DNA of 34,375 nucleotides from the NCBI GenBank assembly GCA_964550005.1, contig CAZJWT010000001.1, forward strand, positions 1 through 34,375, written 5' to 3'. The notes under the pieces were generated by a model. That model was not told the DNA's origin, did not search any database, and saw only the letters and a list, made by a program, of their open reading frames with translations. This stretch comes from an uncultured Clostridia bacterium (GTDB taxonomy: Bacteria > UBA6262 > WVXT01). This document shows, piece after piece, positions 1,632 to 34,364 of the stretch. Position 1 is the first letter of the stretch. Every line of letters begins with the position of its first letter. A program made the translations under genes and the position numbers.

Positions 1632-1690
1632 GTAGGGGGAAAACTCCGTGGCAGCCCAAATAAAGGGCGGGCACAGAGTCCCGCCCCTAC
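1632..1690. repeat. REP doublet (tail-to-tail), family with loop ACTCYGTG
   Basis: 1632-1657 reads gtagggggaaaactccgtggcagccc: head and loop are conserved but the stem has decayed. The reverse complement of 1665-1690 reads gtaggggcgggactctgtgcccgccc, with a perfect 7-bp stem. The two are separated by aaataaa. Confidence 0.85.
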
Positions 1691-1737
1691 GCTTTGCCGC
1701 TACATGAAGGAATTTAGACGTCTTGACTGGGGGTTCG

Positions 1738-3318
1738 TTATTTAGGTGGCTTCTTTTGAATAATTGTGTCCTTTTGCCAGTGGAGGTCATCCCTTGATGG
1801 GCAATCAAGGTTATAGTGTAGACCACGACTCTCTTTACGCTGAATAGCAGAGTTGATAATTAGCTGTCCCACCGTTGCAATATTGCGTAGCTCGATCAGG
1901 TCGCTAGTAATAATAAAATCCCAATAATAGTCCTGGATTTCCTTCTGGAGAAGTTCAATGCGGCGCTTAGCTCGCTCCAAGCGCTTTTTCGACCGAACTA
2001 TCCCCACATAATTCCACATCAACCTTCTAATTTCGTCCCAGTTATGGCTTACCATTACAGCTTCATAGCTATCAACAGCATGTCCTATGTCCCAGGTAGA
2101 AATTCGTGGGAAAGATATTTTTTCTTCTGCCACACACTTTGCCTGCTGACTAGCTCTGTCAGCAAAGACCAGCGCCTCCAAAAGGGAATTGGAAGCCAAG
2201 CGATTGGCACCGTGTAAACCAGTACAGGCGACTTCTCCCACAGCATAGAGCCGTTTAAGACTTGTCCGACCATTACTATCAGTTAGAACCCCGCCACAAA
2301 TGTAATGTGCTGCAGGAACTACGGGAAGCGGTTCTCTGGTCATATCAAAACCGAACGAGCGACATTTCCTGTAAATGTGGGGAAACCTTTTCTTTATGAA
2401 TTCCGGGCTTCTATGTGTGATATCCAGAAAGACACAGTCATCGCCCCTTTTTTTCATTTCGTGGTCGATTGCACGGGCAACTATATCCCGGGGAGCCAGT
2501 TCCTTCTGTGGATGGTATTTGTGCATAAAAGGCGAGCCATCTTTCAATCTCAAAATCCCCCCTTCTCCCCTCACAACCTCTGAAATGAGGAAAGACTTTG
2601 CTTCTGGATGGTAAAGGCACGTGGGATGAAACTGCATAAATTCCATGTTCGCAATCTTGGCCCCTGCCCTGTATGCCATGGCTATTCCATCCCCTGTAGC
2701 CACATCCGAATTACTGGTATATAGGTAGACCTTTCCCGCACCACCAGTGGCAAGAAGAGTGACCTTAGCGAGGAAAGTGTAAACTACTTTTTTCTTAATG
2801 TCCAGGACATAGGCTCCCAAACATTCTCCCTCTCTTACAATAAGGTTTACTGCAATTAAGTTTTCGTTTGTAATTATGTTACTATTTCCCTTAACACGCT
2901 TAGCCAAGGTCTTTTCTACCTCTTCTCCAGTCAGATCGGCAGCATGGATTATCCTTCTTTTGGAATGGCCACCTTCACGAGTGAGGTCATATTTTGTCTT
3001 ATCTTTCTCCCATAAAGTAAAATTTACTCCCCAATTAATTAAATCTCTTACCCTATCTGGGCCATTTTTCACCACTATTTCAACTACATCCGGATGGCAA
3101 AGACCATCCCCGGCAACCAAAGTGTCCTGAATGTGTGCGTCAAATGAGTCCTCCTGACTCCAGACCGAAGCTATTCCTCCCTGAGCATACTTTGTGTTAG
3201 ACTCCTCAATTTCTCTTTTGGTTACTACTGCCACTTTTCCCCATGTGGCAACTTTAAGGGCAAAGCTCAAGCCGGCTACGCCACTTCCTATCACTAAAAA
3301 ATCGGTCTTTACTTCCAT
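1738..3318 (-). CDS. nadB: L-aspartate oxidase
   Basis: 526-aa ORF with N-terminal FAD fold [12 protein letters not shown], plus [13 protein letters not shown] and ESRGLHY motifs of the aspartate oxidase/SdhA flavoprotein family. It lies next to nadA. Confidence 0.9.
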
Positions 3319-3362
3319 GATTTTCCTCTAAGCGTTGAACAATTTGGAATCGTCGCTACTTT

Positions 3363-3433
3363 GCACGGTTAAAACCGTGCCTACAAAACCTCTCCCGATG
3401 CACTCTTATTGTAGGCACAGATTCAATCTGTGC
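3363..3433. repeat. REP doublet (head-to-head)
   Basis: 3363-3384 is gcacggttaaaaccgtgc+ctac and 3411-3433 is gtag+gcacagattcaatctgtgc. These are two different hairpins that share the GTAGGCAC head. Confidence 0.8.
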
Positions 3434-3445
3434 ATAATCTCTTCT

Positions 3446-4372
3446 TCAGTCCTTACTGCCAACCTTCAGGTCTAACATCTTCTTTATGCCTTGATAAGCC
3501 TTCACTCTAGTTTCTTCGGGGACCTTAATAAGGTAGTTCATCTCTTTGAGGGAATGGCGAACTTTCTCTAAAGTGTGGTATTTCATGTTGGGACATACCA
3601 TCTTTTCGCTGGCAGGATAGAATCTCTTATCTGGATTCTCTTTTCTCAATCGGTGTAACATACCGATTTCCGTGCCGATTATTAACTCCTTGGCAGAAGT
3701 TTCTCGGGCAAAACTTAGTATGCCGCTTGTTGAGGCAACCTCGTCAGCCAAATCTAATACTTCCTCCAGACACTCCGGGTGGGCAACAAACTTTGCCTCT
3801 GGATGAGCTCTCTTAACATTCAGGACATCTTCCTTCCTCAATACTTCATGTGTTGGACAAAAACCTTCCCAGCAGATTAACTCTTTACTGGTGGAGCGAC
3901 CCACCCAGTGACAAAGATTTCTATCAGGGACAAAAATAATCTTTTCTTGAGTAAGAGAATTGACCACTTTTACTGCATTTGCCGAAGTGCAACAGATATC
4001 GCTTTCCGCTTTTACCTCTGCCGAAGAGTTGACGTAACAGACCACTGACGCTTGGGGATGGTCCTGCTTTAACATCTTCAGTGTCTCTCGAGAAATCATA
4101 TCTGCGAGAGGACATCCGGCCCTCAAATCGGGCAGGAGAACATTCTTTTCTGGTGAAAGAATGGCGGCTGTTTCAGCCATAAACAAAACCCCGCAAAAGA
4201 CTATAGTGTCTGCGTCAGTGGCAGCTGCTTTCCGGCTCAGTTCCAGAGAATCGCCAACGAAATCGGCAATATCTTGAATCTCCCCTATCTGATAATTATG
4301 GGCGAGAATTACCGCATTTCTTCTAAGTTTCAGCTCTTCAATTTCTCTTAAAATTTCTTCCCTACTTTCCAC
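3446..4372 (-). CDS. nadA: Quinolinate synthase
   Basis: 308-aa ORF with a GTG start at 4372. Motifs NAVILAHNYQ, VVCYVNSSAEVKA and FVAHPEC are typical of NadA. Adjacent to nadB. Confidence 0.9.
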   Translation of the reverse strand: MESREEILREIEELKLRRNAVILAHNYQIGEIQDIADFVGDSLELSRKAAATDADTIVFCGVLFMAETAAILSPEKNVLLPDLRAGCPLADMISRETLKMLKQDHPQASVVCYVNSSAEVKAESDICCTSANAVKVVNSLTQEKIIFVPDRNLCHWVGRSTSKELICWEGFCPTHEVLRKEDVLNVKRAHPEAKFVAHPECLEEVLDLADEVASTSGILSFARETSAKELIIGTEIGMLHRLRKENPDKRFYPASEKMVCPNMKYHTLEKVRHSLKEMNYLIKVPEETRVKAYQGIKKMLDLKVGSKD

Positions 4373-4384
4373 TTTTTTACCTTT

Positions 4385-4415
4385 GTAGTAAGGCAGAGCT
4401 TCGTTCTGCCGCTAC
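4385..4415. repeat. Palindromic element bounded by gtag...ctac
   Basis: gtagtaaggcagagcttcgttctgccgctac, with hairpin ggcaga/tctgcc. It lies immediately upstream of the nadA start. Confidence 0.7.
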
Positions 4416-4422
4416 AATATTG

Positions 4423-4563
4423 AAAAGATAGTTCGTGAGAAGAACTTCTGGAATTTTAGCCAAAAATCGGAGATTGTAGCAGCAAAGCGCTGTCATTGCG
4501 AACGAAGTGAAGTCCCGATTTATCGGGACCACGCCCCGATTTTCAATCGGGTCTCGCAATGAC
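4423..4563 (+). mobile_element. Partial composite MITE-like element (left end, 'ttttagccaaaaa' module and 72-nt cattgcga multi-hairpin)
   Basis: The modules are aaaagatagtt (left TIR-like end), ggaattttagccaaaaatcgg, then 4492-4563 gtcattgcga...cccgatttatcggg...ccccgattttcaatcggg..tctcgcaatgac. No right TIR is visible before the panC stop. Confidence 0.7.
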
Positions 4564-4592
4564 ATCATTATACCGCACAGTTCAGTCTCGGG

Positions 4593-5444
4593 CTACATTC
4601 GTTTCACAAGCATGTTATCAATTAATCTGGTCTTGCCAATCCAAACAGCCAGAGCAACCAAAACCGTTCTTCCCGGTCTTATCATCTTCATATCTTCTAA
4701 GGTTTCAGGGTTAACAATTTTTATGTAATCTATTTTAGCGTAGGGTTCTCTCTGAATAATTTCTTCTGTTTCAGAAATTACATCTGGAACGGAATTTCCA
4801 GCTTTTATCAACTGTTTCGCACGCTTTAGCGCTCCATATAATGAGAGAGCCTCCTTTCTCTCCTGAGAAGAGAAGTAGGAATTACGAGAACTCATTGCTA
4901 ATCCATCTGGCTCACGAACAATGGGGCATTCTCTAATCTCGATCTCCATATTTAAATCCTGAACCATCCTCTTTATAATTTTTAGTTGCTGATAGTCCTT
5001 CTGTCCGAAATAGGCAACGTGCGGTTTCACAATATTGAATAATTTACAGACCGCTGACGCCACACCCCTGAAATGTCCTGGCCGGGACAGTCCACAAAGC
5101 ACTTTTGATAACCTCTCCACTTCCACATAGGTAGAATATCCTTCCCCGTACATTTCGGAAACAGAAGGATAGAAAATTATGTTTACACCTTCCCTTTGAG
5201 CAAGCAATCTATCTTTCTGGAAAGGACGGGGGTACCTCCTGTAATCTTCTCCAGGCCCGAACTGCGTAGGGTTAACAAATATACTCATAACCACGATATC
5301 ATTTTCTCTCCTTGCTCTTTGCATCAGAGAAAGGTGACCCTGGTGGAGTGCTCCCATTGTGGGAACGAAACCGATGGACTTCCCTTCTTCCCTTAGCCTA
5401 TCAGCAACCTTTTGCATTATCGAAATTTTCCTGATTATTCTCAT
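4593..5444 (-). CDS. panC: Pantoate--beta-alanine ligase
   Basis: 283 aa with [14 protein letters not shown] (HxGH nucleotidyltransferase motif), FGQKDYQQ and MSSRN. AGGAGA lies upstream of the ATG. Confidence 0.9.
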
Positions 5445-5460
5445 TCTTCTCCTAAAAAGT

Positions 5461-5496
5461 AAAAAGGGGTCAGAGTCATTTTTGGAGTCATTTTTG
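5461..5496. repeat. Short shared motif plus perfect 12-nt tandem duplication
   Basis: aaaaaggggtcagagtcatttttgg matches the reverse complement of 33101-33126. gagtcatttttg occurs twice in tandem (5473-5484 and 5485-5496). Confidence 0.8.
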
Positions 5497-5498
5497 CC

Positions 5499-7950: not shown

Positions 7951-8002
7951 AATCTCAAATTTCAAATTATAAATTTCAAATTACGGGCATAAAGCCCTAC
8001 AC
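7951..8002 (-). repeat. Heptamer tract (AAATTTC-type, ~5 units) fused to REP gggcataaagccctacac
   Basis: aatctc aaatttc aaattat aaatttc aaattac + gggcataaagccctacac. It lies directly upstream of the dapB RBS. Confidence 0.85.
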
Positions 8003-8010
8003 TACCATAC

Positions 8011-8084
8011 TAATTTCAAATTTCAAATTTCAAATCTCAAATTTCAAATTACAAATTTCAGATTATGGGTATGAAGCCCTACAC
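8011..8084 (-). repeat. Heptamer tract (~8 units) fused to REP gggtatgaagccctacac
   Basis: taatttc aaatttc aaatttc aaatctc aaatttc aaattac aaatttc agattat + gggtatgaagccctacac. Confidence 0.85.
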
Positions 8085-8102
8085 GACAACACAATATCTC
8101 AC

Positions 8103-8975: not shown

Positions 8976-8993
8976 CCCCGCACCTCCCTATTA

Positions 8994-9028
8994 AAATTTC
9001 AAATTTCAAATTTCAAATTTCAAATTTC
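8994..9028 (-). repeat. Perfect heptamer tandem repeat (AAATTTC)x5
   Basis: Five exact units that end 18 nt upstream of the dapA ATG. The minus strand reads (GAAATTT)5-taatAGGGAGGtgcggggATG. Confidence 0.9.
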
Positions 9029-9045
9029 TAACCTCTACTCTTATT

Positions 9046-9071
9046 GGGCGACCACGGAGTGTCGCCCCTAC
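9046..9071 (-). repeat. REP, loop ACTCCGTG
   Basis: gggcgaccacggagtgtcgcccctac is identical to 16617-16642. The identity extends to 28 nt with the flanking tt. Confidence 0.9.
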
Positions 9072-9117
9072 AACTTCCTGTCCCGTTTAAAGCGAGCGGA
9101 TTTGATGAAGCGAGCAT

Positions 9118-9213
9118 TAGAATTTTTAGCCAAAAATCGAAGATTAGAGTCTAGTCCCGCAAAGACGGGGCAGACTCCTGAGATTTTTGGCGGTGGTCAA
9201 AGACCAAAAAATT
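9118..9213 (+). repeat. 'ttttagccaaaaa' module forming a 63-nt extended hairpin, plus tail shared with 33078-33109
   Basis: gccaaaaatc (9129-9138) pairs perfectly with gatttttggc (9182-9191). There is an inner stem gagtct/agactc. The tail gagatttttggcggtggtcaaagaccaaaaaatt resembles 33078-33109. Confidence 0.8.
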
Positions 9214-9214
9214 G

Positions 9215-10104: not shown

Positions 10105-10174
10105 TAGCTGCAGAAGCAAAGCTAAGCTTTGCCTCTTTTAGCAGAGCTATCGCTCTGCAGCTACATTCTACATT
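10105..10174 (-). repeat. Compound palindrome (closing stem plus two inner hairpins) with duplicated ctacatt head
   Basis: tagctgcag (10105-13) pairs with ctgcagcta (10155-63). The inner hairpins are gcaaagc-taa-gctttgc and gcagagc-tatc-gctctgc. These are followed by ctacatt ctacatt (10161-74); the second copy contains the lysA TAG stop. Confidence 0.8.
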
Positions 10175-12868: not shown

Positions 12869-12889
12869 AGCGAAGCTTCGCTTCGCTAC
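12869..12889 (-). repeat. 14-nt perfect palindrome agcgaagcttcgct abutting a ctac head
   Basis: agcgaagcttcgct + tcgctac. The cta at 12886-88 is the argG stop codon. Confidence 0.7.
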
Positions 12890-14112
12890 TCCTTTTTATC
12901 TATCAATGCTTTTACTTCCAAAGGCAACCCCAATAAGTCAATAAATCCCTTAGCAGCAGTGCGGTCAAACTTATCTTCAGCTCCATAGGTAGCTAATCTC
13001 TTCTGATAGAGGGAGTAAGGAGATTTCCGACCGACAACCCACAGATTTCCTTTATATAGCTTCACTCTAACAGTTCCGGTAACCCTCTTCTGAGTTGCAG
13101 AAATAAAGGCATCTATTGTCTTCTTGAGCGCTGACTCCCAAAGCCCACAATAGACCAGTTCTGCATACCGGGGAGCAATGAATTCCTTATAGTGGAAAGT
13201 ATCCCGATCAAGTGTCAAACTCTCCAGTTCCCGATGGGCTAAATATAAAATTGTTGCCGCCGGAGCTTCATAGATTTCCCTGGACTTGATTCCCACTACC
13301 CTATTCTCCACCAGGTCGACGCGACCAATCCCATGAGCTGCTCCAACTCTGCTCAGCTTTCTGATTAACTCCACCCGAGGGAATAACTTCCCATTTATCC
13401 TGGTAGGGATTCCCCGTTCAAAATATATATCTAAGTAGACGGGCTTTGAAGGTGCCTTTTCCGGAGGAGTAGTTATCTGATACGCATCCTCTGGAGGCTC
13501 GTCCCAGGGATCCTCCAATGGCCCACATTCAATGGACACCCCCCACAGATTCCTGTCAATGCTATAGAGCTTCTCTTTACCAGCAGAGACGGGAATCTTA
13601 TGCCTCCTAGCATATTCGATCTCTTCCTGACGGGATACCATCTCCCATTCTCTCAAAGGAGCCAATATCCTCAGTTCAGGATTTAATGCTTTAAAAGTTA
13701 ACTCAAATCTTATCTGGTCGTTTCCTTTTCCTGTACATCCATGTGCAACTGCGTCTGCCTTTTCTCTTTTAGCAACTTCCACCAATTTTTTGGCAATGAG
13801 AGGCCGGGAAAGTGCTGCGGAAAGAAGATACCCCCCCTCGTAAACAGCGTTGGCCTGTAGAGTTGGAAATACATAATCCCGGACAAATTCTTCTTTCAAA
13901 TCCTGTATGTAGACCTTAGAAGCACCAGCATTTACGGCTTTTCGTTTCAAATCTAAAACCTTCTCAGTAGTCTTTCCGGCAATTTCAAACTGACCAACAT
14001 CGGCAACGAAGGCAATCACCTGGCAACCATAGTTTTTCCTCAGCCAGTGAATTATTATAGAAGTATCCAGTCCTCCCGAATAGGCTAAAACAACCCTTCT
14101 TGCCTTTTCCAT
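12886..14112 (-). CDS. argG: Argininosuccinate synthase
   Basis: 408 aa with VLAYSGGLDTS (N-type ATP pyrophosphatase motif) and AHGCTGKGNDQIRFE. AGGAGG RBS. Confidence 0.93.
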   Translation of the reverse strand: MEKARRVVLAYSGGLDTSIIIHWLRKNYGCQVIAFVADVGQFEIAGKTTEKVLDLKRKAVNAGASKVYIQDLKEEFVRDYVFPTLQANAVYEGGYLLSAALSRPLIAKKLVEVAKREKADAVAHGCTGKGNDQIRFELTFKALNPELRILAPLREWEMVSRQEEIEYARRHKIPVSAGKEKLYSIDRNLWGVSIECGPLEDPWDEPPEDAYQITTPPEKAPSKPVYLDIYFERGIPTRINGKLFPRVELIRKLSRVGAAHGIGRVDLVENRVVGIKSREIYEAPAATILYLAHRELESLTLDRDTFHYKEFIAPRYAELVYCGLWESALKKTIDAFISATQKRVTGTVRVKLYKGNLWVVGRKSPYSLYQKRLATYGAEDKFDRTAAKGFIDLLGLPLEVKALIDKKE

Positions 14113-14702
14113 CTCCCCTCCTTACGCTTCGCTTCAGTCGGCCGGGGTTCTCACCATCTCGAACCCGTCGCCAGACTTGTCCCGATTTATTCATCGGGAC
14201 GGCGACCCTTACGCTTCGCTTCAGTCGGTGACCTGCCTGCTCAAAAGAGTTTATAGTCACTAGTTCGTAGTTCATAGCAATCATCAATTAGGTCTACGAA
14301 CTATGAACTGCCGACTACGAACTGGAACACTCCTTATTCGTCGGAACAGCGACCCGGGGCGCTCACCGTCTCGCGCCCGCGCTTTTCCCTCGCTACGCTC
14401 AGTCGTCCCGATGAAATCGGGACCGGCGCCCCTCCTATCTGAATCTGCCTGTGCTCAATAGGGGAAACTCTTCGTTTCCCCTAATTGCGTTCGCTTCGCT
14501 CTCTGTCACCCTTTCCGCAGAGGTCATTCCTATTTATGTGAATCTGCTCCGAAGGAGTCCGACGCCTCCATTGGGTTTCGGAGTCCTGTCGGACCTGTGC
14601 TTCCCCTCACCTATAGCCTCTCCCCCAACGGGGAGAGGAAAAAACAACCTTTTGTCATCCCTTCCGCATTCCTTCCACTATACCGAACCTAAATATCTGA
14701 GC
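14113..14702. repeat. 590-bp non-coding mosaic of short repeat modules
   Basis: A 22-mer direct repeat ccttacgcttcgcttcagtcgg occurs at 14120-41 and 14207-28. Conserved-loop hairpins lie at 14142-67 and 14354-79. cccgat/atcggg mini-hairpins lie at 14179-14200 and 14405-23. Inverted heptamer arrays span 14261-77 and 14294-14324. A 9-bp-stem hairpin lies at 14460-82. cccctcacc...cctctcccc-caac-ggggagagg spans 14603-38. Confidence 0.85.
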
Positions 14703-14928
14703 AAAAGATAGTTTTGAAGAGCTTTAAGGAATTTTAGCCAAAAAACGAGGACAACTGTCATTGCGAAGAGCGGAGCGACGAAGCCCCGATTTATCGGGGC
14801 CACGGGCTTCGCCCTCGCAATGACATTCCGATGATCCCGATTTATCGGGAGAGTTTCGATTTGCGCCCTGCAAAGTCCGAAGTTTTTTGGCGTTAAGAAA
14901 TTCCTCCAGCGAGGAAAAACTATCTTTT
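14703..14928 (+). mobile_element. MITE-like composite element, 226 bp, 13-bp perfect terminal inverted repeats
   Basis: The TIRs are aaaagatagtttt (14703-15) and aaaactatctttt (14916-28). An inner inverted pair is gccaaaaaac (14737-46) and gttttttggc (14882-91). It also contains the 68-nt cattgcga element (14757-14824) and tcccgatttatcggga (14835-50). Confidence 0.75.
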
Positions 14929-14969
14929 GTGAATCAGCCTTACTGAAAAATGGTCGCTGTCCCTATTTT

Positions 14970-16236: not shown

Positions 16237-16282
16237 TGTAGCCCTTTCACAAATTTCAAATTACGGGCATAAAGCCCTACAC
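16237..16282. repeat. REP gggcataaagccctacac with two heptamer units and a decayed inverted partner
   Basis: gtagccctttcac + aaatttc aaattac + gggcataaagccctacac. agtgtag...ctacact forms an inverted pair. Confidence 0.75.
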
Positions 16283-16284: not shown

Positions 16285-16493
16285 CCGAGGGACTCCCAAA
16301 ACTATCCTTACATCTTACGGGTTCGATGAATCGAACCCCTACATTAATTGTAGGGGCTCAATTTATTGAGCCCATTCCTTCAATTCCGCGTCATTGCGAG
16401 GAAGCGAAGCGACCGAAGCCCCGATTTATCGGGGCCACGGCTTCGCCTCGCAATGACAGCCATCCGAGAGACTCCGAAAACTATCCCTTCATC
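16285..16493. repeat. REP head-to-head doublet plus 68-nt cattgcga element, bracketed by a ~30-nt imperfect direct repeat
   Basis: The direct repeats are ccgagggactcccaaaactatccttacatc (16285-16314) and ccgagagactccgaaaactatcccttcatc (16464-93). The REPs are 16319-42 gggttcgatgaatcgaacccctac and 16350-73 gtaggggctcaatttattgagccc, with a 7-nt spacer attaatt. The hairpin element spans 16390-16457. Confidence 0.85.
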
Positions 16494-16501: not shown

Positions 16502-16642
16502 GGACATAAAGCCCTACACTACCTTGTAGGGGACGGACTCTGTGCCGTCCCTTCCTTCGTCACCCTAAAGGGCGACCAACCTGTCTGGTCGGGCACTATT
16601 TATGGTGCCGTCCTTTGGGCGACCACGGAGTGTCGCCCCTAC
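16502..16642. repeat. Array of five palindromic units
   Basis: The units are ggacataaagccctac (16502-17), gtaggggacggactctgtgccgtccc (16526-51), cttcgtcaccctaaagggcgaccaacc (16555-81), ggtcgggcactatttatggtgccg (16588-16610) and gggcgaccacggagtgtcgcccctac (16617-42). The last overlaps the GT39 stop codon. Confidence 0.9.
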
Positions 16643-18393
16643 GACTCTTTTCTATTTGTCAATACATAGAAGTATTCTCTATGTTTACTCAAAAGAGACC
16701 TCAATCTACCTTCCCGAAATGCCCGAAAAATCTCCTTTGTATTTTTTCTTCCTTTGAAATCATAGGAAAAACTATTTCCCTTTATGGGATAATCTTGCTT
16801 TAAGTTCTCAGGAAGTCTCCTGTATTCAGAATCAGGCAGGATGACAAAGAGAGTCCTCGCTGATGACTTTTCCTTTTCCAGATAATCGTAAGCCAAACCT
16901 ATCCGATCTCCATAGTAGGTTCCATCTAATAACCGGGAAGCGTAGATAGTTAGCCAGACCCTCGGCCCTCTATCAATTCCTATGGTGATAACTCTGTCTT
17001 GGGCTCCAACTTCCTTAAGGTATCTTAAGCCCAGCTCCCTCCAGGGCACAGGTACTGTTGAGGGAAAAATTCCTCCAATAAAAATAAAAGCAACTGTCAC
17101 CATTGTGCAGGCTATTGTCGGTGGAATTGGCAAGAAGATTTGCCTCTTGTAGAATTTTACGAGAAGAATACTTCCTCCCAGTAAAACTATAAATGACAGT
17201 ATAGAAAATATGAAACCATAACTACCGAGTGAATAGATAACAAAAGTTAGGAAGAGCGTAAATAAGGCTAAAATTATGAATAATGACAAAATAGACAGGA
17301 CGAATATTTTGAAAATTCTACTCTTGAAAGCACCTCGCTCCTCAATTCTCACCAGATATTCACCACTGAGGAGGGCTAAGGCTGGGGAGAGGGGAAGCAA
17401 GTATCTGGAATGGCGAGAGGAAACAAAAAAAGTAAACATCCCAAACGTGACAGCCAACCAGAGAAATAGGAATAGAATTTCGTTTCTATTTTTCTCCTTT
17501 CTTTTGGTTGACAGAATACCAATCAGTAGGAGAATTGACCAGGGGAAAAAATGTCTTACCATTGTACCTGAATAGTAACCAATGTTAGAAAATATACCTG
17601 TGGAAGCCCTGTTGACCCTACTAAGCAATTCCCCAAAAAAGAAGCAATTCATGAATCTATCTCCATGTAGAAGATACATTGCCAGGGGCCAGGGAATTAC
17701 TATCAAGAGGAAAAAAATGAATGGCCAGGGAGTGAAGATATCTCTTAAAGCCAATCTATTCTTTGGAAAAACCGACAAGAATATTATTATAGATATAAAG
17801 GGAATCAAAAAACCAGCAGGACCTTTCGTCATTGTAGCCAGCCCCATGGCTATAAAGGAGAAAATAAAGTATGAACGCCGATTCTTTTCTTCAAAAAACC
17901 CTTTCGCAAAAAAGAGCATTGAAAGGATTATAAAAAAGGTGAGCACCATATCGGTCCTTGCAGCTCGCGCGTCAAGGAAATAGAGCGAACTGGAAAGTAG
18001 AGCAAGTGAGGAGAAGAGTGCTCCCTTGTAATTACCGAAGAGAATCAGTGAGAAATAGTAAATGAGTAGTATACCAGAAGTAGCAAAAATAACAGATGGC
18101 AAGCGTCCGGAAAATATGTTAACTCCAAAAATCTTAAAAGAAAGAGCAACAAGCCAGTAGAATAGTATCGGCTTCTGGAACCTTAATTCCTGCCCCTCAA
18201 AGACTGGCGTTATCCAATTGCCGGTCTTAACCATGCCTAAGCAGGAACTGAGATAGTAAGTCTCATCGCTTTGATAAGTGGTTATCTCTGAAAGACCTGA
18301 GGAGAATAAAACAAAAGATGCTAAAGCAAGAATAAAATATATTTCCTTCCCTCTAATAGATCTCAAGAGCTTTATTTTTAAGTTCATCAGCAT
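16639..18393 (-). CDS. GT39/ArnT-like polyprenyl-phosphate-sugar-dependent glycosyltransferase (PMT_2 family integral membrane protein)
   Basis: 584 aa with many predicted TM helices. The N-terminal region has the ...QKPILFYWL... loop typical of ArnT/PMT-type transferases. It is downstream of a GT2 polyprenyl-phosphate glycosyltransferase. Confidence 0.7.
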   Translation of the reverse strand: MLMNLKIKLLRSIRGKEIYFILALASFVLFSSGLSEITTYQSDETYYLSSCLGMVKTGNWITPVFEGQELRFQKPILFYWLVALSFKIFGVNIFSGRLPSVIFATSGILLIYYFSLILFGNYKGALFSSLALLSSSLYFLDARAARTDMVLTFFIILSMLFFAKGFFEEKNRRSYFIFSFIAMGLATMTKGPAGFLIPFISIIIFLSVFPKNRLALRDIFTPWPFIFFLLIVIPWPLAMYLLHGDRFMNCFFFGELLSRVNRASTGIFSNIGYYSGTMVRHFFPWSILLLIGILSTKRKEKNRNEILFLFLWLAVTFGMFTFFVSSRHSRYLLPLSPALALLSGEYLVRIEERGAFKSRIFKIFVLSILSLFIILALFTLFLTFVIYSLGSYGFIFSILSFIVLLGGSILLVKFYKRQIFLPIPPTIACTMVTVAFIFIGGIFPSTVPVPWRELGLRYLKEVGAQDRVITIGIDRGPRVWLTIYASRLLDGTYYGDRIGLAYDYLEKEKSSARTLFVILPDSEYRRLPENLKQDYPIKGNSFSYDFKGRKNTKEIFRAFREGRLRSLLSKHREYFYVLTNRKES

Positions 18394-19383: not shown

Positions 19384-19497
19384 TTGTAGGGGACGGACTC
19401 TGTGCCGTCCCTAGCGGGTGGCCACCCCGATATATCGGGATAAACTGCGTGCCACCCCTACAGGGCCACCATCCCGATACATCGGGATCGCCCCTAC
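19384..19497. repeat. Array of three REP units filling the GT2-argB gap
   Basis: The 29-mer ttgtaggggacggactctgtgccgtccct (19384-19412) is identical to 16524-52. A 46-nt two-stem unit spans 19416-61. A shortened variant at 19462-97 has a ctac that contains the argB stop. Confidence 0.9.
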
Positions 19498-20285
19498 TTT
19501 ATGATTTTGGTTCCTCCCAATTTCATCCGCTTTTCAAGAAGAGGCAACAGAGCATCTTTTTTTCGACCATCAAGGATATTTATTTCCTTTACACCTTTCC
19601 TAAGCGCCTCAGCACAGGAATCTATCTTGGGAATCATTCCTTCAGTAATGGTTCCCTTCCTTGCCAGCTTCTCAACCTCTTCTATTCTTATCTCTTTAAT
19701 TACAGACTTCTCATCTTTAGGATTTTCCAGAATGCCTGGCACATCGGTTAGGAAGAATAACCTTTCTGCTCCGATAGCAGCTGAAAACTGGGCTGCAAAG
19801 ATATCGGCATTGATGTTATAAGTCACCCCTCTTCTATCCATAGCCGTAGAAGAGATAACCGGGATGAACCCGTTATCCAAAAGGACGTACATAATTTCAG
19901 GATTTACTCTCTCCACTTCAGCCACATATCCGAGGTCGTGTCTTCCTTCTATCTTCTTCGCTTCCACTAAAAAACCATCCTTCCCTGAAATGCCCACAGC
20001 CCTCCCTCCCAAAAGATTAATCCTTCCCACTATCCTTCGGTTAATCCCTGCCAGAACCATCTCCACAATTTCCAGGCTTTCAGCATCTGTGTACCTTTGC
20101 CCTTTTACAAATCTCGGCTTCTTTCCCAAAATATTCAGTTTTTCAGTAATTTCCAGCCCGCCTCCATGAATGACGACTGGATGTTTTAGTCGTTTTGCCA
20201 GCGAGATAATATTCTTGAGGTGACTATCCATCACCGGTCCTCTCAAAAGTTTCCCGCCAATCTTTATTACTAACAACTCTTTCAC
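19494..20285 (-). CDS. argB: Acetylglutamate kinase
   Basis: 263 aa with VIKIGGK, VIHGGG and NINAD motifs. The GTG start at 20285 overlaps the comEC TGA by 4 nt (GTGA). Confidence 0.9.
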   Translation of the reverse strand: MKELLVIKIGGKLLRGPVMDSHLKNIISLAKRLKHPVVIHGGGLEITEKLNILGKKPRFVKGQRYTDAESLEIVEMVLAGINRRIVGRINLLGGRAVGISGKDGFLVEAKKIEGRHDLGYVAEVERVNPEIMYVLLDNGFIPVISSTAMDRRGVTYNINADIFAAQFSAAIGAERLFFLTDVPGILENPKDEKSVIKEIRIEEVEKLARKGTITEGMIPKIDSCAEALRKGVKEINILDGRKKDALLPLLEKRMKLGGTKIIK

Positions 20286-23851: not shown

Positions 23852-23950
23852 CTCTTTTGAACTCCTCCCCACTCCTCTCCCCAAAGGGGAGAGGGACAGG
23901 GTGAGGGGTTTAATCCTCTCCCCCATGCGCAAAGGTTTCTCTTTTTGAAC
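23852..23950 (-). repeat. 'ggggagagg' palindromic element (inverted copy) flanked by an 11/12-nt direct repeat
   Basis: cctctccccaaaggggagagggacagggtgagggg (23875-23908) is the inverted form of 14603-38 and 27273-27306. The flanks are ctcttttgaac (23852-62) and ctctttttgaac (23939-50). Confidence 0.75.
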
Positions 23951-24028: not shown

Positions 24029-25222
24029 CTAATATTGAACTCTTACGGCTACAACTATTCTGGTCAGTGTCTCATCTATTCTCTGACGCTCCTCAAAGAA
24101 GGTGGCATCACCATAATAATTCCTTTTGCCGAACTCCCCGGCAAAATCGAAAGATACTATATTGTTAAATTTATATCCCAGCCCTCCCGTAAAGGAGACC
24201 ATCTGAAATTCTTTACTACCATAAAAGGGTTGAAAATGGAAACCATATCTTAAAGAAAGAGCATCTGACAGATAGTGCTCTGCACCAATACGAAATTCAA
24301 AGGTATCACCGTAATTAGATCCTGATTCAAATCCCGACCATTCACTAAAGATGAACTCAGCCGCTATGGTAGAAGAGATTTCGTCAACGAAATTATAAGC
24401 CACACCAAAGCCATACGATAGGGGAAATTTTAGCTCTTTCCTGCCTTCTTTTGTCGACGTAGAGTAGTTCACTTTCCATCTATCCTCGACTTTTCCTCTT
24501 GTCTTAACAATAAATCCAGCTCTAAACTCATCGGAGAAGCAGAGCATCCCTCCCAGCGTGAAATTAAGACCAGAACTCTTTGATTTGAGCTCGGTAACGG
24601 AGGCGGGAGGAGAAGCATAAATAGTGCATCTATTTTTGAGACTTCTTTCTCCATACAGAAGGTTAACAGTCCCACCCATACATAAATATGGCGTGAGCTT
24701 CCATGCTCCTCCTAAGCTATAGCCATAGAGGCTTCCTTCTCCACTTATGCTGGCAGAGCCAATTTTCTCACCCGGCGAATCTGCGTCAAAGATGGATTTC
24801 TCATGCTCGTAATGGTTGTCGTATAAGGAGACAAGTCCTAAAGCCAGCACCCATTTTCTTCTGACCGGAAAAGCAAGAGTAGCACTATTGAGTTGAAAAT
24901 AGCACTGAGAATTAAAATACGTCAATTCATCTTCTGTAATCACCTTTTCTACAACCGGCGCTATTCCCAAAGCTAATGAAAGTTCGTTCTTTTTCAAAAC
25001 CCCGAGACATGAGGGATTTACAAATATAGAAGAAGAATCGGTTGCACTGGCAATTGATGTTCCTCCCATTCCCATGCAGCGAGCCCCAATTCCAGAAATG
25101 GGATCTCCTAAGCGAGAAACTCCCAGATAAGTAAGCGCATCAACTTTTGAAGCCAGAAAACAGAGAATAGTAACTACTACAAAAACAATTCTTTCTTTGT
25201 TCACCTTTCCTTTGTAACCCAC
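24029..25222 (-). CDS. Outer-membrane beta-barrel protein, FadL/PorV-like family
   Basis: 397 aa with a signal peptide (...LASKVDA/LT). The N-terminal plug-type motif GIGARCMGMGGTSIASATDSSSIFVNPSCLG resembles the FadL/TodX/PorV G-x-GAR-x-GMGGA...NPAGL signature. It shows an alternating beta-strand pattern and a C-terminal aromatic (…VRVQY). The start codon is uncertain (GTG 25222 or GTG 25204). Confidence 0.65.
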   Translation of the reverse strand: MGYKGKVNKERIVFVVVTILCFLASKVDALTYLGVSRLGDPISGIGARCMGMGGTSIASATDSSSIFVNPSCLGVLKKNELSLALGIAPVVEKVITEDELTYFNSQCYFQLNSATLAFPVRRKWVLALGLVSLYDNHYEHEKSIFDADSPGEKIGSASISGEGSLYGYSLGGAWKLTPYLCMGGTVNLLYGERSLKNRCTIYASPPASVTELKSKSSGLNFTLGGMLCFSDEFRAGFIVKTRGKVEDRWKVNYSTSTKEGRKELKFPLSYGFGVAYNFVDEISSTIAAEFIFSEWSGFESGSNYGDTFEFRIGAEHYLSDALSLRYGFHFQPFYGSKEFQMVSFTGGLGYKFNNIVSFDFAGEFGKRNYYGDATFFEERQRIDETLTRIVVAVRVQY

Positions 25223-27272: not shown

Positions 27273-27502
27273 CCCCTCACCCTTTCCCTCTCCCCGGGGG
27301 GAGAGGAGAGAAATAAGAAGTCAAGCTTCCACTATCTTCGTCACCCTGCCCCGTCCCGAAACCGGAACGGGGTCGGGAAAGGGTGACCAACCACGCGTAG
27401 GGGCGACCCTTGCGGTCGCCCATTGGTCGGGCACTCTTTAGAGTGCCGTTTCTGGTCGGGGGCACCATTTACCTGTCCTGAACATAGCCGAAGGATGGTG
27501 CC
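27273..27502. repeat. Array of palindromic units between the PorV-like gene and the HhH-barrel gene
   Basis: The units are cccctcaccctttccctctccccggggggagagg (27273-27306), cttcgtcaccct[30-nt insert]aaagggtgaccaacc (27336-92), gtaggggcgacccttgcggtcgccc (27397-27421), ggtcgggcactctttagagtgccg (27425-48) and ggcaccat...atggtgcc (27461-27502). Confidence 0.88.
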
Positions 27503-30028: not shown

Positions 30029-30111
30029 CCTTTCACTCCTTTCCAGAATCTATATCTTGGCTTTCATAAGTTGGGAATCACGAGACGTTAATCTGTTCAA
30101 CCTTATCCTTG

Positions 30112-30687: not shown

Positions 30688-30713
30688 AATTCAAGACTCT
30701 CCTTTTGGTAAGA

Positions 30714-31397: not shown

Positions 31398-31409
31398 TTT
31401 AAACCCCTC

Positions 31410-31455
31410 GGACGACGACCCCGCCAAAGCGGGGTAAACTGCGTGTCGTCCCTAC
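31410..31455 (-). repeat. 46-nt two-stem REP unit (TAAACTGCGT family)
   Basis: ggacgacgaccccgccaaagcggggtaaactgcgtgtcgtccctac aligns position for position with 19416-61. Confidence 0.9.
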
Positions 31456-31470
31456 ATTAACTGGGACTTG

Positions 31471-31720
31471 AAAGATAGTTTGTGAAGAGCATTGGGAATT
31501 TTAGCCAAAAAATGAGGACGGCTAACCCTCTTCCAAGCAAAAATTTGTTCGACTCCCGCTCTGCGGGAAGAGTTTATTTTTGCGCCTTGCAGAGTCGTTG
31601 CGAGGAAGCGAAGCAACCGAAGCCCCGATTTATCGGGGCCACGGCTTCGCCTCGCAATGACATCTTAGTGAGCGAACCAAATCCCAAGCATATTTCCTTA
31701 GTGATGAACAAACTATCTTT
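31471..31720 (+). mobile_element. MITE-like composite element, 250 bp, 13-bp perfect terminal inverted repeats
   Basis: The TIRs are aaagatagtttgt (31471-83) and acaaactatcttt (31708-20). It contains ggaattttagccaaaaaatgagg, gagtttatttttgcgccttgcagagtc and the 67-nt cattgcga-type element (31595-31661). The modules match 14703-14928 but occur in a different internal order. Confidence 0.75.
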
Positions 31721-31760
31721 TAAATCCTGCAAATCTTGACGATGCTTAAAGAGCGAAAAT

Positions 31761-33014
31761 CTAAAAATAGCCGGGCTCTACAAATCCCGCTTCAGTTCCT
31801 TCAGGGGTCAATCTCAGGGAGCCGAACTGGATTGTTCTAATCTTCTCCTTCTCTCTTACTGGAGTAAATATTCTTATTCTTCTTCCTTTATAATCTATTC
31901 TATCAATAATTCCTATCCCCAGAACTTCACCCAGCGAATCCAGAAGTCCTATAAGTAGGTTCTTTTCATTACCAGCAATGATATTTCTTAGATTGGAAGC
32001 TCCTGCTTCCCTCTTTACTATAATGGATTCTTCCTCAGACAATGGCTCCTCTGTTACCACGAAAACTCCTTCCCAACCTGAAAGTCTCTCCGCCCAAAGA
32101 TACTGGATACCTTCCAATTTGATTTCTTTACCCGTTTTGAAATAGGCACGGTCTGTTTGAACTTCATCCAGGTCCAGTTCTATATAACCGGCTTCTTTGA
32201 AATACTTTTTATACATCGTTTCGCGTAGCCCCTTCCTCTCCTCGTGGTTTCTCGGCAAGGGACCCTTGCTAACAAGTAAGTGGACGATTTTCTCCCGGGG
32301 ATAATTTTTGACCAGATGTTCCAGCTCGTCGCCTCTCTGGAGCAAAATGATTGCATCCGGGCTCAACATCTCTATTTCTGAGCGGTGGAGAGCACGGGCT
32401 TTCTCTCCCTGCACCCAGCCAGGTGTATCAATGATAAGTATATCGGCAAGAGTTAGTCCGCAGTCAACTAATTTTTTGAGCCCAACGAGTGAAGGAAGAA
32501 AATGGAAGGCAGGAGAGTTCGAGCCGGTAAAATAGAGGGCGGTTGGCTCTACTTCACTCGGAAAGACTATCTGCCTGTCTAAAACTGCCAGCCCTATTGT
32601 TCCCGGCGGACCGATGTCGCTCTGACCTGTATCACAATCGAGAATTCCTACTCTTAATCCGTGAGTCAGAAGTCTATTGGCTAAATAAGTCGAAAAGAAA
32701 GTCTTTCCAGTGTCTATCTCTCCCAAAATTAGAATTACCCTCGCTCCCTGTTTACTTAACTGCCCAGCTAACCTATCCCAGGGATCGGGAATCGTGCGCT
32801 CGGATAGGTGTTCTCTTTCTCCACCCTCCTCAAAATCTAAGGTCAATTCACCATCTACTATCGTCTCTACTGGTATAGACTTTCCCCTCGGAATCGTAAC
32901 TTGGTCAGGATTTTCCAGAGTTTTTGCTACTGCCTCGAACTTACCTTTATTAATTTTAAGGAGGCAGGGGCCCTTAAATAAGTAGATGTTTCCTTTATTC
33001 AATTTCAAATTCAT
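31761..33014 (-). CDS. Clp1/Grc3-family polynucleotide 5'-hydroxyl kinase homologue
   Basis: Start trimmed to ATG 33014 (MNLKLNKG...), because the 28 upstream codons of the track ORF are repeat-derived. P-loop GEIDTGKTF is followed by ILDCDTGQSDIGPPGTIG (the Clp1 DxDxGQ motif) and IIDTPGW. The N- and C-terminal beta domains resemble archaeal Clp1. Confidence 0.65.
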   Translation of the reverse strand: MNLKLNKGNIYLFKGPCLLKINKGKFEAVAKTLENPDQVTIPRGKSIPVETIVDGELTLDFEEGGEREHLSERTIPDPWDRLAGQLSKQGARVILILGEIDTGKTFFSTYLANRLLTHGLRVGILDCDTGQSDIGPPGTIGLAVLDRQIVFPSEVEPTALYFTGSNSPAFHFLPSLVGLKKLVDCGLTLADILIIDTPGWVQGEKARALHRSEIEMLSPDAIILLQRGDELEHLVKNYPREKIVHLLVSKGPLPRNHEERKGLRETMYKKYFKEAGYIELDLDEVQTDRAYFKTGKEIKLEGIQYLWAERLSGWEGVFVVTEEPLSEEESIIVKREAGASNLRNIIAGNEKNLLIGLLDSLGEVLGIGIIDRIDYKGRRIRIFTPVREKEKIRTIQFGSLRLTPEGTEAGFVEPGYF

Positions 33015-33045
33015 GATGGTTGCGGCAATTCTAAAGCAGAGAGTT

Positions 33046-33126
33046 GAGCAACCCTGAAGGTCACCCCTACGCCACCTGAGATTTTGGGCGGCGGTCAAAG
33101 CAAAAAATCACTCTGACCCCTTTTTT
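33046..33126. repeat. Decayed REP head plus two short shared modules
   Basis: gagcaaccctgaaggtcacccctac carries the ctac head with a weak stem. gagattttgggcggcggtcaaagcaaaaaatc resembles 9180-9213. caaaaaatcactctgacccctttttt resembles the reverse complement of 5461-85. Confidence 0.65.
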
Positions 33127-33133
33127 ACCCATT

Positions 33134-33997
33134 TTATTTCTTTAAATATTTTCCTATCAATAGGTCGAGTTTCCTGGCTGTTCTTTTGTTTATTGCCCAC
33201 TTCCGTGTCTGAATTGCATAAGCGAGAGCTGAAGCACATTCGCATTTCCTCTCGCGTCCTAACCTGGGAATGGCAGTCTTGATTAACTTCTTCACATTCT
33301 CAATATTGGCCAGGAGATTCCCGATGACCCTTTCCACGCTGACCTCTTCACCTTCTTTCCATACATCGTAGTCTGTAACTAACCCTAAAGTAGCATAACA
33401 GATTTCTGCTTCCCGAGCCAGTTTTGCCTCGGGGAGATTGCTCATTCCAATAATAGAAAATCCTAAAGAGCGGAAGACTTTAGATTCTGCTTTGGTGGAA
33501 AATTGGGGCCCCTCGATACAGACATATGTGCCACCCAGGTGGACTGAAAGCCCCAAGTCTTTTGCTACTTGATAGAGAATTCGGCTCAATTCAAGGCAGT
33601 AGGGATTGGCAAAGCCGATGTGGGCAACAATGCCCTCTCCAAAGAAGGTATAAGGTCTCTGGCGAGTGCGGTCAAATAGTTGGTCGGGAATTACTATATC
33701 TCTGGGTTTTAACTCTTCCTTGAGGCTGCCGCATGCTGAAATAGAAATTATCTGTTCTACCCCTAAACTCTTTAGAGCATAGATGTTGGCTCTGGAATTA
33801 AGCTCTGAAGGCATTATAAAATGTCCTCTGCCATGTCGGGGCAGAAAGGCAACAGGAATCCCTCCCAGATTACCAATGACAATTTTATCAGAAGGGTCGC
33901 CAAAGGGAGTCCTTATTTTCTCTCTGCGTATATCTGTAATTCCCTCGACGTCATAGATGCCACTGCCTCCTATTACTCCAATTTTAACTTGTTGCAT
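33134..33997 (-). CDS. mtnP: S-methyl-5'-thioadenosine phosphorylase
   Basis: ATG at 33997 (MQQVKIGVIGGSGIY) is preceded by AGGAGG. Motifs FLPRHGRGH, ISACGSL, EGPQFSTKAES and GMSNLPEAKLAREAE are typical of MTAP/PNP family 2. Confidence 0.88.
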   Translation of the reverse strand: MQQVKIGVIGGSGIYDVEGITDIRREKIRTPFGDPSDKIVIGNLGGIPVAFLPRHGRGHFIMPSELNSRANIYALKSLGVEQIISISACGSLKEELKPRDIVIPDQLFDRTRQRPYTFFGEGIVAHIGFANPYCLELSRILYQVAKDLGLSVHLGGTYVCIEGPQFSTKAESKVFRSLGFSIIGMSNLPEAKLAREAEICYATLGLVTDYDVWKEGEEVSVERVIGNLLANIENVKKLIKTAIPRLGRERKCECASALAYAIQTRKWAINKRTARKLDLLIGKYLKK

Positions 33998-34050
33998 TAT
34001 CTTACCTCCTTGATACGACACTCTGAAGAGTGACCGAACTACCTGTTTTT

Positions 34051-34275
34051 TCAGCGACCCTTAATCATTTCGAGTACTTTTTGAGCCAAAGAAATGAATT
34101 CCCCGAGGGATTCTTCAGATATGGTGATGAAATTCCTTTTGTACTTTTCTTCTCCCAGGGGAATGCTTTCAGTAATCTTCACAAACTTTCCATTATCGTT
34201 TTCTTTCACATCGAAAAAGAAGGTCTTTCCCCTCTCGGTTCTAAAACGTTCGTTATAGATTTCTCGGTCGGGCAT
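34051..34275 (-). CDS. PUR-alpha-like (DUF3276) single-repeat ssDNA/RNA-binding protein
   Basis: 74 aa. ...ERGKTFFFDVKENDNGKFVKITES...RNFITISEESLGEFISLAQKVLE matches the PUR repeat pattern (beta-sheet plus C-terminal helix). GGGAGG RBS. Confidence 0.6.
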   Translation of the reverse strand: MPDREIYNERFRTERGKTFFFDVKENDNGKFVKITESIPLGEEKYKRNFITISEESLGEFISLAQKVLEMIKGR

Positions 34276-34341
34276 CTAATCCTCCCTATGTGAATTTATG
34301 GGTGCTTCCAGATATATCGCGACGTTCGCTTCCAGTAATCG

Positions 34342-34364
34342 GGCCGACCAAGGTCGGCCACTAC
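34342..34364 (-). repeat. REP
   Basis: ggccgacc-aa-ggtcggcc + actac. The sequence that follows, ggtgggcga, looks like the start of another unit cut by the window edge. Confidence 0.75.

Follow-up and report, generated by a model that had tools for sequence, protein, structure and literature searches.

What are the GC-rich, GTAG-headed hairpins that recur between the genes of contig CAZJWT010000001.1, from an uncultured bacterium labeled Clostridia, and what has spread them? The window analyzed here is a 34,375 bp chromosomal stretch of this contig (~44% GC) that carries housekeeping genes, nearly all on the minus strand. We propose, with a probability of roughly 0.88, that the hairpins are repetitive extragenic palindromes (REPs) and REP doublets forming hairpins (REPINs), i.e., non-autonomous mobile DNA palindromes probably spread by REP-associated tyrosine transposases (RAYTs, also TnpA-REP, enzymes of the HUH Y1 type). 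A preliminary description of the window had already likened them to REPs recognized by RAYT transposases, a suggestion now supported by their dispersal, their covariation, and the presence of hairpin-flanked RAYT genes in the lineage.

The motif GTAGG alone is not enriched in the window (46 matches vs. 45 expected). GTAG followed by a perfect hairpin with a stem of at least 7 bp occurs 13 times, whereas 100 dinucleotide shuffles gave a mean of 0.51 and a maximum of 4. Every one of these 13 elements is intergenic, with stems of 7–8 bp and total lengths of 21–26 nt. When short, compound-loop, and degenerate-head copies are included, the total comes to ~25, with 23 GTAG elements listed, some of them two-headed (Table 1), in agreement with the initial count of more than 20 hairpins. 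Likewise, the elements are GC-rich as first reported (65–77% vs. ~44% for the window), the doublets at 1632/1665, 3363/3411, and 16319/16350 were confirmed, and the six copies with an ACTCYGTG loop were recovered where the preliminary description had placed them, with compensated stems and with decay of the copy at 1632. Two of its statements needed revision: that nearly every intergenic gap carries a hairpin was overstated, since reading the gaps revealed a GTAG hairpin in ~12 of 21 (11 of 14 when only gaps above 90 bp are considered), and of the proposed conserved head only the GTAG part stands, the following GGG being the base of the stem in the main family. Hairpins occur in both strand orientations, and degenerate heads are confined to decayed copies, e.g., at 10108 and 4476. 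The main family, hereafter family A, consists of GTAG, a 7-bp stem, and the ACTCYGTG loop, for a total of 26 nt (for the CGAC stem type, in full, GTAGGGGCGAC-ACTCCGTG-GTCGCCC). A covariance model (CM) built from this family recovers the six ACTCYGTG-loop copies of the window at E ≤ 7e-6, five of them with a perfect stem and an intact head and loop, and scores the other GTAG hairpins more weakly.

Family A is multi-copy and dispersed rather than confined to this locus. A scan of one genome per species with the pattern GTAGGGG-N4-ACTCYGTG-N4-CCC returned at least 118 loci, mostly from Pyrinomonadaceae/Blastocatellia metagenome-assembled genomes (MAGs), with some from Chloroflexota and “Clostridia”-labeled MAGs, while a metagenome scan with the window-specific CGAC stem variant returned at least 120 loci (883 kb) with a median GC of 0.44, all from sediment samples among the matches listed (collected genome, metagenome, and homolog loci are designated by L-numbers). 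The 120 metagenome loci listed, to which copy numbers below refer, contain 669 GTAG-headed GC-rich hairpins of recurrent families and, taken together with the window (~917 kb), 292 copies of family A. Of these copies, 263 have a perfect 7-bp stem of one of several discrete types (CGAC, ACGG, TGGC, CGGG, CGGC, TGAC, AGGG), and the GTAG is preceded by T in 73% and by CT in 24%. Since each metagenome locus was selected for at least one copy, hairpin density in this sample is overestimated, and since both scans and the alignment pattern required GTAG, its invariance there proves nothing; evidence for the head that is free of this bias comes from the enrichment over shuffles, from the GTAG hairpins on the flanks of RAYT genes identified by protein homology, and from the restriction of degenerate heads to decayed copies. 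Lone copies of the GTAGGGGCGGAACTCYGTGTCCGCCC hairpin were also seen in AT-rich unrelated genomes (L075, a Bacilli MAG with 26% GC; L104, a Clostridia MAG with 28% GC; and L025) and may represent contamination, transfer, or chance; L025 was considered as a CRISPR spacer match to a REP and rejected, as there is no repeat array at this locus.

The stems vary in a compensated manner. The inner four bases are perfectly complementary in 126 of the 142 genome matches listed, with at least 12 stem variants. Across 68 distinct family A sequences, 87% of cells pair vs. 70% in shuffles, and the covariation score of 0.427 (shuffles, 0.147) was reached by none of 500 shuffles, while sliding the 3′ partner by 1–3 columns yielded scores of at most 0.135. 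The compensatory stem swaps first noted in the window are thus matched by strong covariation.

RAYT genes were found in four of the listed metagenome loci from the lineage of the window (L189, L128, L198, and L236; Table 1). Those of L189 and L128 are 85% identical and flanked by GTAGGGG-stem-ACTCYGTG hairpins with several different stems, and the RAYT genes of L241 and L242 similarly have ACTCYGTG REPs on both sides. The RAYT of L236 is surrounded by arrays of GTAGCGGAGC-GRTA-GCTCCGC and of GTAGCGAAGC-AAA-GCTTCGC (or its GAA-loop form); this second family is also represented in the window at 12869-12889, with related GTAGC hairpins at 10141-10164 and 4385-4415. Matching REPs likewise flank the RAYTs of L024, L030, L073, and L245–L249. 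At least three RAYT types, each with its own GTAG hairpin family, are thereby shown here to occur in the lineage. A weak tblastn match in L080 was rejected as a RAYT because it lies inside an acetyl-CoA synthase gene.

The predicted proteins, ~160–200 aa long and with alignable HUH and catalytic Tyr motifs, pass both the NCBIfam model NF047646 “REP-associated tyrosine transposase” (87–96 bits, cutoff 80) and Pfam Y1_Tnp, whereas the IS200 transposase model yields 21–25 bits (cutoff 55) and no match at all for two of five proteins. They share 19–26% identity with E. coli RayT, and the DHLH, WQ, and YILANP motifs of the L189 type fit RAYT subclass 2.5, equivalent to group 3 (PMC6006769). The RAYT clade comprises 273 homologs. 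One with 79% identity is encoded in a sediment metagenome assembly as well as in the NCBI MAG GCA_964345635, on both occasions between glycoside hydrolase (GH) family GH35/42 and GH94 genes and with the same flanking REPs. More distant homologs (44–65% identical) from Dehalococcoidia, Tectomicrobia, Desulfobacterales, Chloroflexota, and Pirellulales are all flanked by 26-nt GTAG hairpins with the loop ACTCCGTG or the variants CCTCCGTG, CCGCCGTG, and GTCCCT. RAYTs flanked by matching hairpins were also found in Pyrinomonadaceae and five other phylum-level groups: in the Pyrinomonadaceae loci L024, L030, and L073, tblastn with E. coli RayT matches open reading frames (ORFs) located between hairpins, and for the L030 protein 642 homologs were retrieved, many of which carry the Joint Genome Institute (JGI) name “REP element-mobilizing transposase RayT.” The lineage RAYT was not reached from this Pyrinomonadaceae protein, the best 120 of the 642 homologs being all at least 69% identical and Pyrinomonadaceae-like.

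The genomic position of these genes is conserved. A RAYT slot between GH35/42 and GH94 genes is common to L128, L189, L241, and L242 at 85–87% nucleotide identity, and altogether five lineage contigs hold a RAYT in this slot, four of the family A type and one, L236, of another type. The gene appears here as a stable chromosomal gene, not a multi-copy insertion sequence (IS). The L236 locus is syntenic with those of L128, L189, and L241 (10001-10528) at 81–87% nucleotide identity, yet holds an unrelated RAYT type with a different REP family. As the usual view of RAYT genes is that they do not move and are inherited vertically, this looks like either a replacement or a hotspot.

Several features connect the RAYT-bearing contigs to the window. 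Listed metagenome contigs L167, L238, L171, L139, and L228 are syntenic with the window at 80–91% nucleotide identity, and the RAYT loci differ among themselves to a similar degree (81–87%). The RAYT-bearing contigs have ~44% GC and the same stem variants as the window, and among the genome scan matches listed, the CGAC and ACGG stems were found only in “Clostridia”-labeled MAGs with 44–46% GC. Moreover, an element identical to the one at 1665-1690 flanks the RAYT genes of L128, L241, and L246. The closest match to ArgG is 89% identical, with one close match labeled “Firmicutes bacterium” and the next group at 66%. Genes for BamG/PorV-like (24029-25222) and ArnT-like (16639-18393) proteins in the window suggest an outer membrane, which makes the Clostridia/Firmicutes label of the closest records doubtful.

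Comparison with these relatives indicates that the hairpins move. REP content differs at almost every gap between relatives 80–91% identical, which implies recent turnover, and several long gaps of the window are nearly or fully absent at the orthologous sites (Table 1). Where filled and empty orthologous sites could be compared, they differ by the exact 26-nt unit, which begins with the G of GTAG and ends with the final base of the stem, and show no target duplication (e.g., L241:9798-9823 vs. L128 and L236, or L235:3709 vs. L128:6142). Such an exact insertion without target duplication is the outcome that single-strand Y1 HUH transposition yields. At L241:9798-9823, and also in L242 and L243, the single 26-nt REP sits inside the 3′ end of a GH35/42-family gene and alters its C-terminus; the gene is uninterrupted at this site in L128 and L236.

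Family A copies are frequently arranged in pairs with a well-defined architecture. The heads face outward in 78 of 127 neighboring pairs, among which a spacer of 7 nt is the most frequent (43 cases), and all 71 tight doublets combine two different stems, mostly ACGG with CGAC, although 40% would be expected to carry the same stem twice (P ~2e-16). This invariable hetero-stem pairing is most simply read as copying of the whole 59-nt doublet in one piece, i.e., as a REPIN. In the window, the 1632/1665 pair has the canonical 7-nt spacer and one decayed arm, retaining three of seven stem pairs, while the spacer of the 16526/16617 doublet is widened to 65 nt by other repeats; the composite at 16519-16646 recurs in L169, L149, L224, and L136 at 88–93% identity. 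The family A doublet is usually nested, always in one orientation, in the spacer of a second doublet formed by the GTAGC family (GCAAAGC ... GCAGAGC; GTAGCAGCAAAGC-GTAA-GCTTTGC, >30 copies): GCAAAGC is the neighbor of the ACGG arm in 44 of 45 cases, and GCAGAGC that of the CGAC arm in 40 of 40. With a strict pattern, 11 of these outer doublets are empty and 12 filled. The window contains an empty one at 10108-10164, and the site where it lacks the family A doublet (10133-10140) is occupied by one in L171, L139, and L150.

Mechanistically, REPs would fold in single-stranded DNA, where a RAYT encoded elsewhere in the genome by a single, REP-flanked gene (REPtron) would recognize, cut, and re-join them. 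By analogy with published RAYT biochemistry, the enzyme may read the unpaired GTAG, which would direct cleavage to a CT or CA close by, together with the 8-nt loop, while the stem would need only to pair, which could explain why head and loop are constant on swapped stems. For group 3 RAYTs, REPs are perfect palindromes in which certain loop positions are immutable, GTAG guides CT/CA cleavage, and the stem sequence matters little (PMC8266576). Since three RAYT types were found in the lineage, the many distinct hairpins on one head that the preliminary description had remarked on most likely reflect several co-resident RAYT-REP systems and not a single enzyme acting on all of them. Secondary roles of the transcribed hairpins, such as protection of mRNA 3′ ends or termination, are possible.

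Several observations weigh against this interpretation. As initially reported, the window has no RAYT gene (tblastn with six RAYT queries), and a RAYT in the genome from which the window derives is presumed from relatives ~80–90% identical, whose RAYT contigs are tied to the window by GC content, lineage-specific stems, and repeat families rather than by a shared contig. For the minor families 3363/3411, 16319/16350, short GGGC, and 34342, the search turned up no cognate RAYT, and a one-to-one code between RAYT and loop is not established, because the RAYTs of Pyrinomonadaceae and of the lineage are only ~24–35% identical even though head and loop of their hairpins are the same. The lack of a RAYT in these 34 kb, the decayed arm at 1632, and the degenerate heads at 10108 and 4476 would also be expected if this genome, like many E. 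coli strains, had lost its cognate gene(s), leaving the REPs as relics that persist by drift or through host functions, and REPtron loss is documented (PMC3733652). We consider this scenario unlikely, given that five of six family A copies are perfect in stem, head, and loop, that REP content changes at almost every gap among close relatives, and that a RAYT occupies the conserved GH42-GH94 locus in five lineage contigs.

The location of the hairpins between co-directional genes, often at gene ends and with the head TAG acting as a stop codon in three of them, could alternatively point to host structures of RNA or DNA (terminators, mRNA 3′ stabilizers, protein-binding sites) that are selected and do not transpose, and such roles have been discussed for REPs (PMC3733652). 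Most REPs lack a following T-run, and a scan for terminator-like structures exceeded shuffles only weakly (26 vs. 18.2, standard deviation 4.1), with few REP hairpins among its matches, so an identity as intrinsic terminators was rejected; Rfam families and tRNAs gave no match in the window at gathering score or E ≤ 0.1. With identical 26-nt units at unrelated loci and in other phyla, exact presence/absence, association with RAYTs, and both orientations, a mainly regulatory origin is very improbable, and a regulatory role can be tenable only as a secondary, acquired function. The hairpin with a 5′ guide tetranucleotide, the Y1 HUH enzyme acting on single-stranded DNA, and the lack of target duplication are shared with IS200/IS605 elements (IS608, ISDra2), and a TnpB-like ORF is inserted in L228 at a site matching 30029-30111 of the window. 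This 1.4-kb insertion (L228:11337-12569) encodes a 410-aa TnpB-like protein with a putative zinc-finger/RuvC-type C-terminus, and the window site is empty (83 bp). That the hairpins represent termini of such elements, or miniature forms derived from them, and are moved by a classical TnpA(IS200) is nevertheless the explanation to which we give least credence: GTAG feet are a RAYT hallmark (PMC8266576, PMC6006769), and the flanked genes score far higher on the RAYT equivalog than on the IS200 model. These genes are also single, at a conserved chromosomal locus, and devoid of IS ends or a tnpB partner.

The RAYT-REP systems proposed here resemble known ones in most respects. In bacterial interspersed mosaic elements (BIMEs) of E. 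coli, Y types are paired with Z types, so that the arms are of different types, as here. An inverted REP pair with a short spacer as the replicating unit, along with clusters and nested composites, is common to these BIMEs and to the REPINs of P. fluorescens (Bertels & Rainey 2011, PMC3116915); unlike those, the doublets described here are built of two separate hairpins, both perfect, that have no inner stem position of the four in common, with a 7-nt spacer and one-orientation nesting in the doublet of a second family. GTAG-tagged REPs, complementary-stem sub-families, dimers, and RAYT association in REPtrons have all been described before (PMC3733652, PMC3116915). The GTAG REP superfamily is defined by GC-rich palindromes of 20–40 nt with an unpaired 5′ GTAG and 6–9 bp stems, sub-families with complementary stems, several families per genome, head-out and tail-in dimers, an extragenic location, and repeat-flanked RAYT genes (PMC3733652), all of which are paralleled here. 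That survey found GTAG repeats in Proteobacteria, Cyanobacteria, Chloroflexi, and the Planctomycetes-Verrucomicrobia-Chlamydiae (PVC) group (Di Nocera et al. 2013, PMC3733652), whereas the hosts here are a sediment lineage labeled Firmicutes/Clostridia and Pyrinomonadaceae (Acidobacteriota), and the 8-nt ACTCYGTG loop contrasts with 2–4 nt in most described GTAG families. The searched text and supplements of Di Nocera 2013 do not contain the exact REP sequence, the figures (including Figure 1) not being searchable, and a literature search, similarly blind to figures, returned only unrelated primer matches. A further parallel is with group 3/subclass 2.5 REPtrons (Stenotrophomonas maltophilia, Marinomonas, Pseudomonas), which combine a perfect GTAG palindrome with a short DHLH/WQ/YI.ANP RAYT encoded by a REP-flanked single gene, and in which binding and cleavage depend on loop positions whereas the stem is free (PMC8266576, PMC6006769); unlike the present systems, with their 8-nt loop and other host lineage, those are proteobacterial and have 3–4 nt loops.

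Table 1 Coordinates of GTAG hairpins, associated genes, variable gaps, and other repeats. Positions are in the window unless an L-number is given.
Feature	Position	Strand	Details
RAYT gene	L189 4463-4990	-	family A hairpins on both sides
RAYT gene	L128 8711-9241	+	family A hairpins on both sides
RAYT gene	L198 6921-7523	-	57% identical to L189; flanks GTAGGGGACGAC-CGCTGT-GTCGTCCC
RAYT gene	L236 4618-5160	-	~25% identical to L189 type; NHYH motif
Family A REP, decayed stem	1632-1657	+	left doublet arm with 1665-1690; CM 30.4 bits, E 6.6e-6
Family A REP	1665-1690	-	GGGCGGG/CCCGCCC; CM 44 bits
Family A REP, single copy	9046-9071	-	GGGCGAC/GTCGCCC; hairpin scan, CM; 88 identical copies
Family A REP	16526-16551	+	GGGACGG/CCGTCCC; left doublet arm; hairpin scan, CM
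Family A REP	16617-16642	-	GGGCGAC/GTCGCCC; right arm of 16526 doublet; hairpin scan, CM
Family A REP	19386-19411	+	GGGACGG/CCGTCCC; hairpin scan, CM; 72 identical copies
GTAG REP, family A stem type, other loop	27397-27421	+	GGGCGACC-CTTGC-GGTCGCCC; CM E 0.004
Compound GTAG REP	19415-19461	-	outer stem GGGTGGC/GCCACCC; loop ACGCAGTTTA plus inner hairpin
Compound GTAG REP, second copy	31409-31455	-	outer stem GGACGAC/GTCGTCC; inner CCCCGC-TTTG-GCGGGG
GTAG imperfect hairpin	19463-19497	-	GTAGGGGCGATCCCGAT-GTAT-ATCGGGATGG; CM E 0.26, weak
GTAG REP	34342-34364	-	GGCCGAC-CTTG-GTCGGCC; CM E 0.096
GTAG REP	3363-3384	-	GCACGGT-TTTA-ACCGTGC; heads-inside doublet with 3411-3433; hairpin scan; 1 identical copy and 3 with ≤2 mismatches; same-site variant in L167
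GTAG REP	3411-3433	+	GCACAGAT-TCA-ATCTGTGC; hairpin scan; 3 identical copies elsewhere; kept in L167
GTAG REP	16319-16342	-	GGGTTCGA-TTCA-TCGAACCC; heads-inside doublet with 16350-16373, spacer 7 nt; 19 copies, 5 in same doublet
GTAG REP	16350-16373	+	GGGCTCAA-TTTA-TTGAGCCC; 15 copies
GTAGC-type hairpin	4385-4415		GGCAGA-GCTTCGT-TCTGCC; GTAG on one side, CTAC on the other; found on both strands
GTAGC-family REP, degenerate head GCAG	10108-10132	+	GCAAAGC-TAA-GCTTTGC; left outer-doublet arm
GTAGC-family REP	10141-10164	-	GCAGAGC-GATA-GCTCTGC; right outer-doublet arm; 8 identical copies
GTAGC-family REP	12869-12889	-	GCGAAGC-GAA-GCTTCGC; hairpin scan
Short GTAG hairpin (repeat family D4)	7985-8000	-	GGGC-TTTAT-GCCC, 4-bp stem; beside AAATTTC heptamer arrays
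Short GTAG hairpin, variant of GGGC (D4) family	8067-8082	-	
Short GTAG hairpin (D4)	16265-16280	-	28-nt unit 100% identical to copy 7979-8006
Short GTAG hairpin (D4)	16502-16517	-	28-nt unit 93% identical to reference copy
argG, ends in REP-head TAG	12886-14112	-	
ArnT-like gene, ends in REP-head TAG	16639-18393	-	
argB, ends in REP-head TAG	19494-20285	-	
Variable gap	7966-8102		137 bp; 12 bp in L171, L167
Variable gap	8976-9214		239 bp; 7 bp in L150, L171, L139
Variable gap	14113-14969		857 bp; 11 bp in L171
Variable gap	31428-31760		333 bp; 0 bp in L228
Nested palindrome, ~69 nt	16390-16458, 31594-31662, 14755-14826, ~4492-4568		two copies 97% identical
MITE-like element	~14697-14932, 31468-31722		partial at 4420-4475, 9106-9214; also L238, L080

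Some of the elements in Table 1 depart from the canonical hairpin. A variant related to the one at 27397, GTAGGGGCGACC-TTTAT-GGTCGCCC, has four copies, and the two compound REPs, at 19415-19461 and 31409-31456, form the direct-repeat family D9, in which both the outer and the inner stems differ between copies and, as read from the sequence, are both compensated. In three genes, argG (12886-12889), the ArnT-like gene (16639-16642), and argB (19494-19497), a GTAG head supplies the stop codon with its TAG, meaning that the REP abuts, or has replaced, the original gene end. Other genes of the window include nadB, nadA, panC, folK, dapL, dapB, dapA, dapF, lysA, argH, argD, comEC, and the gene for the BamG/PorV-like protein.

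Besides GTAG hairpins, the gaps of the window contain several unrelated repeat families. The nested palindrome GTCATTGCGAGG...GCCCCGATTTATCGGGGC...CCTCGCAATGAC has no GTAG head and constitutes a separate family. An element resembling a MITE (a miniature transposable element with inverted repeats), ~230–260 bp long, is bounded by the inverted ends AAAGATAGTTT...AAACTATCTTT, bears the inner inverted motifs GGAATTTTAGCCAAAAA...TTTTTGGCG as well as variable hairpins inside, and is present or absent between relatives. The gap at 14113-14969 is a non-coding repeat mosaic with 52% GC and no Rfam match, which includes a 130-bp unit 88–95% identical to L080 and L231. The heptamer AAATTTC forms tandem arrays (up to 7.6 copies; 7951-8064, 8994-9028, and ~16250-16262) that adjoin short GGGC-ATAAA-GCCC-TAC hairpins; relatives, with a gap of 12 bp, lack the whole block. 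Hairpins of the form CCTCTCCCC-loop-GGGGAGAGG with CCCTCACC-type flanks and no GTAG head (14617-14638, 23874-23894, 27287-27306) make up another dispersed family, and the motif AAAAATGACTCTGACCCCTTTTT and its reverse complement, found at gene ends (5463-5496 and 33105-33127) and also in L150 and L238, a small dispersed repeat.

What is new here is modest: the host lineages, an 8-nt loop shared across phyla, the strict hetero-doublet with its 7-nt spacer, the oriented nesting, and the occurrence of two RAYT types in one slot. A more far-reaching hypothesis, which we offer tentatively and consider rather doubtful at present, is that the 26-nt combination of GTAG, 7-bp stem, and (A/C)C(T/G)CYGTG loop represents a pan-phylum REP type (Acidobacteriota, Chloroflexota, Tectomicrobia, Planctomycetota, Desulfobacterota, and the Firmicutes-labeled sediment lineage) tied to one subclass 2.5-like RAYT clade beyond Proteobacteria, with the 8-nt loop serving as a protein-recognition code. 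Under this hypothesis, two unrelated RAYT systems would interact, the hetero-doublet REPIN of one inserting in fixed orientation into the spacer of the other to generate four-hairpin composites, and unrelated RAYTs would interchange at one slot.

To our knowledge, work on REP/RAYT systems has been confined almost entirely to Proteobacteria, and the known picture of REPs is left unchanged by these findings. They suggest that at least three co-resident RAYT-REP systems dominate the intergenic DNA of an uncultured anaerobic-sediment lineage, with gap contents that change completely between relatives 80–91% identical. For genome annotation, the hairpins explain long structured-looking intergenic stretches, spurious small ORFs, and some stop codons. 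Finally, the fixed head and 8-nt loop, set against free stems with at least 12 compensated variants across phyla, provide a data set on what group-3-like RAYTs may read.

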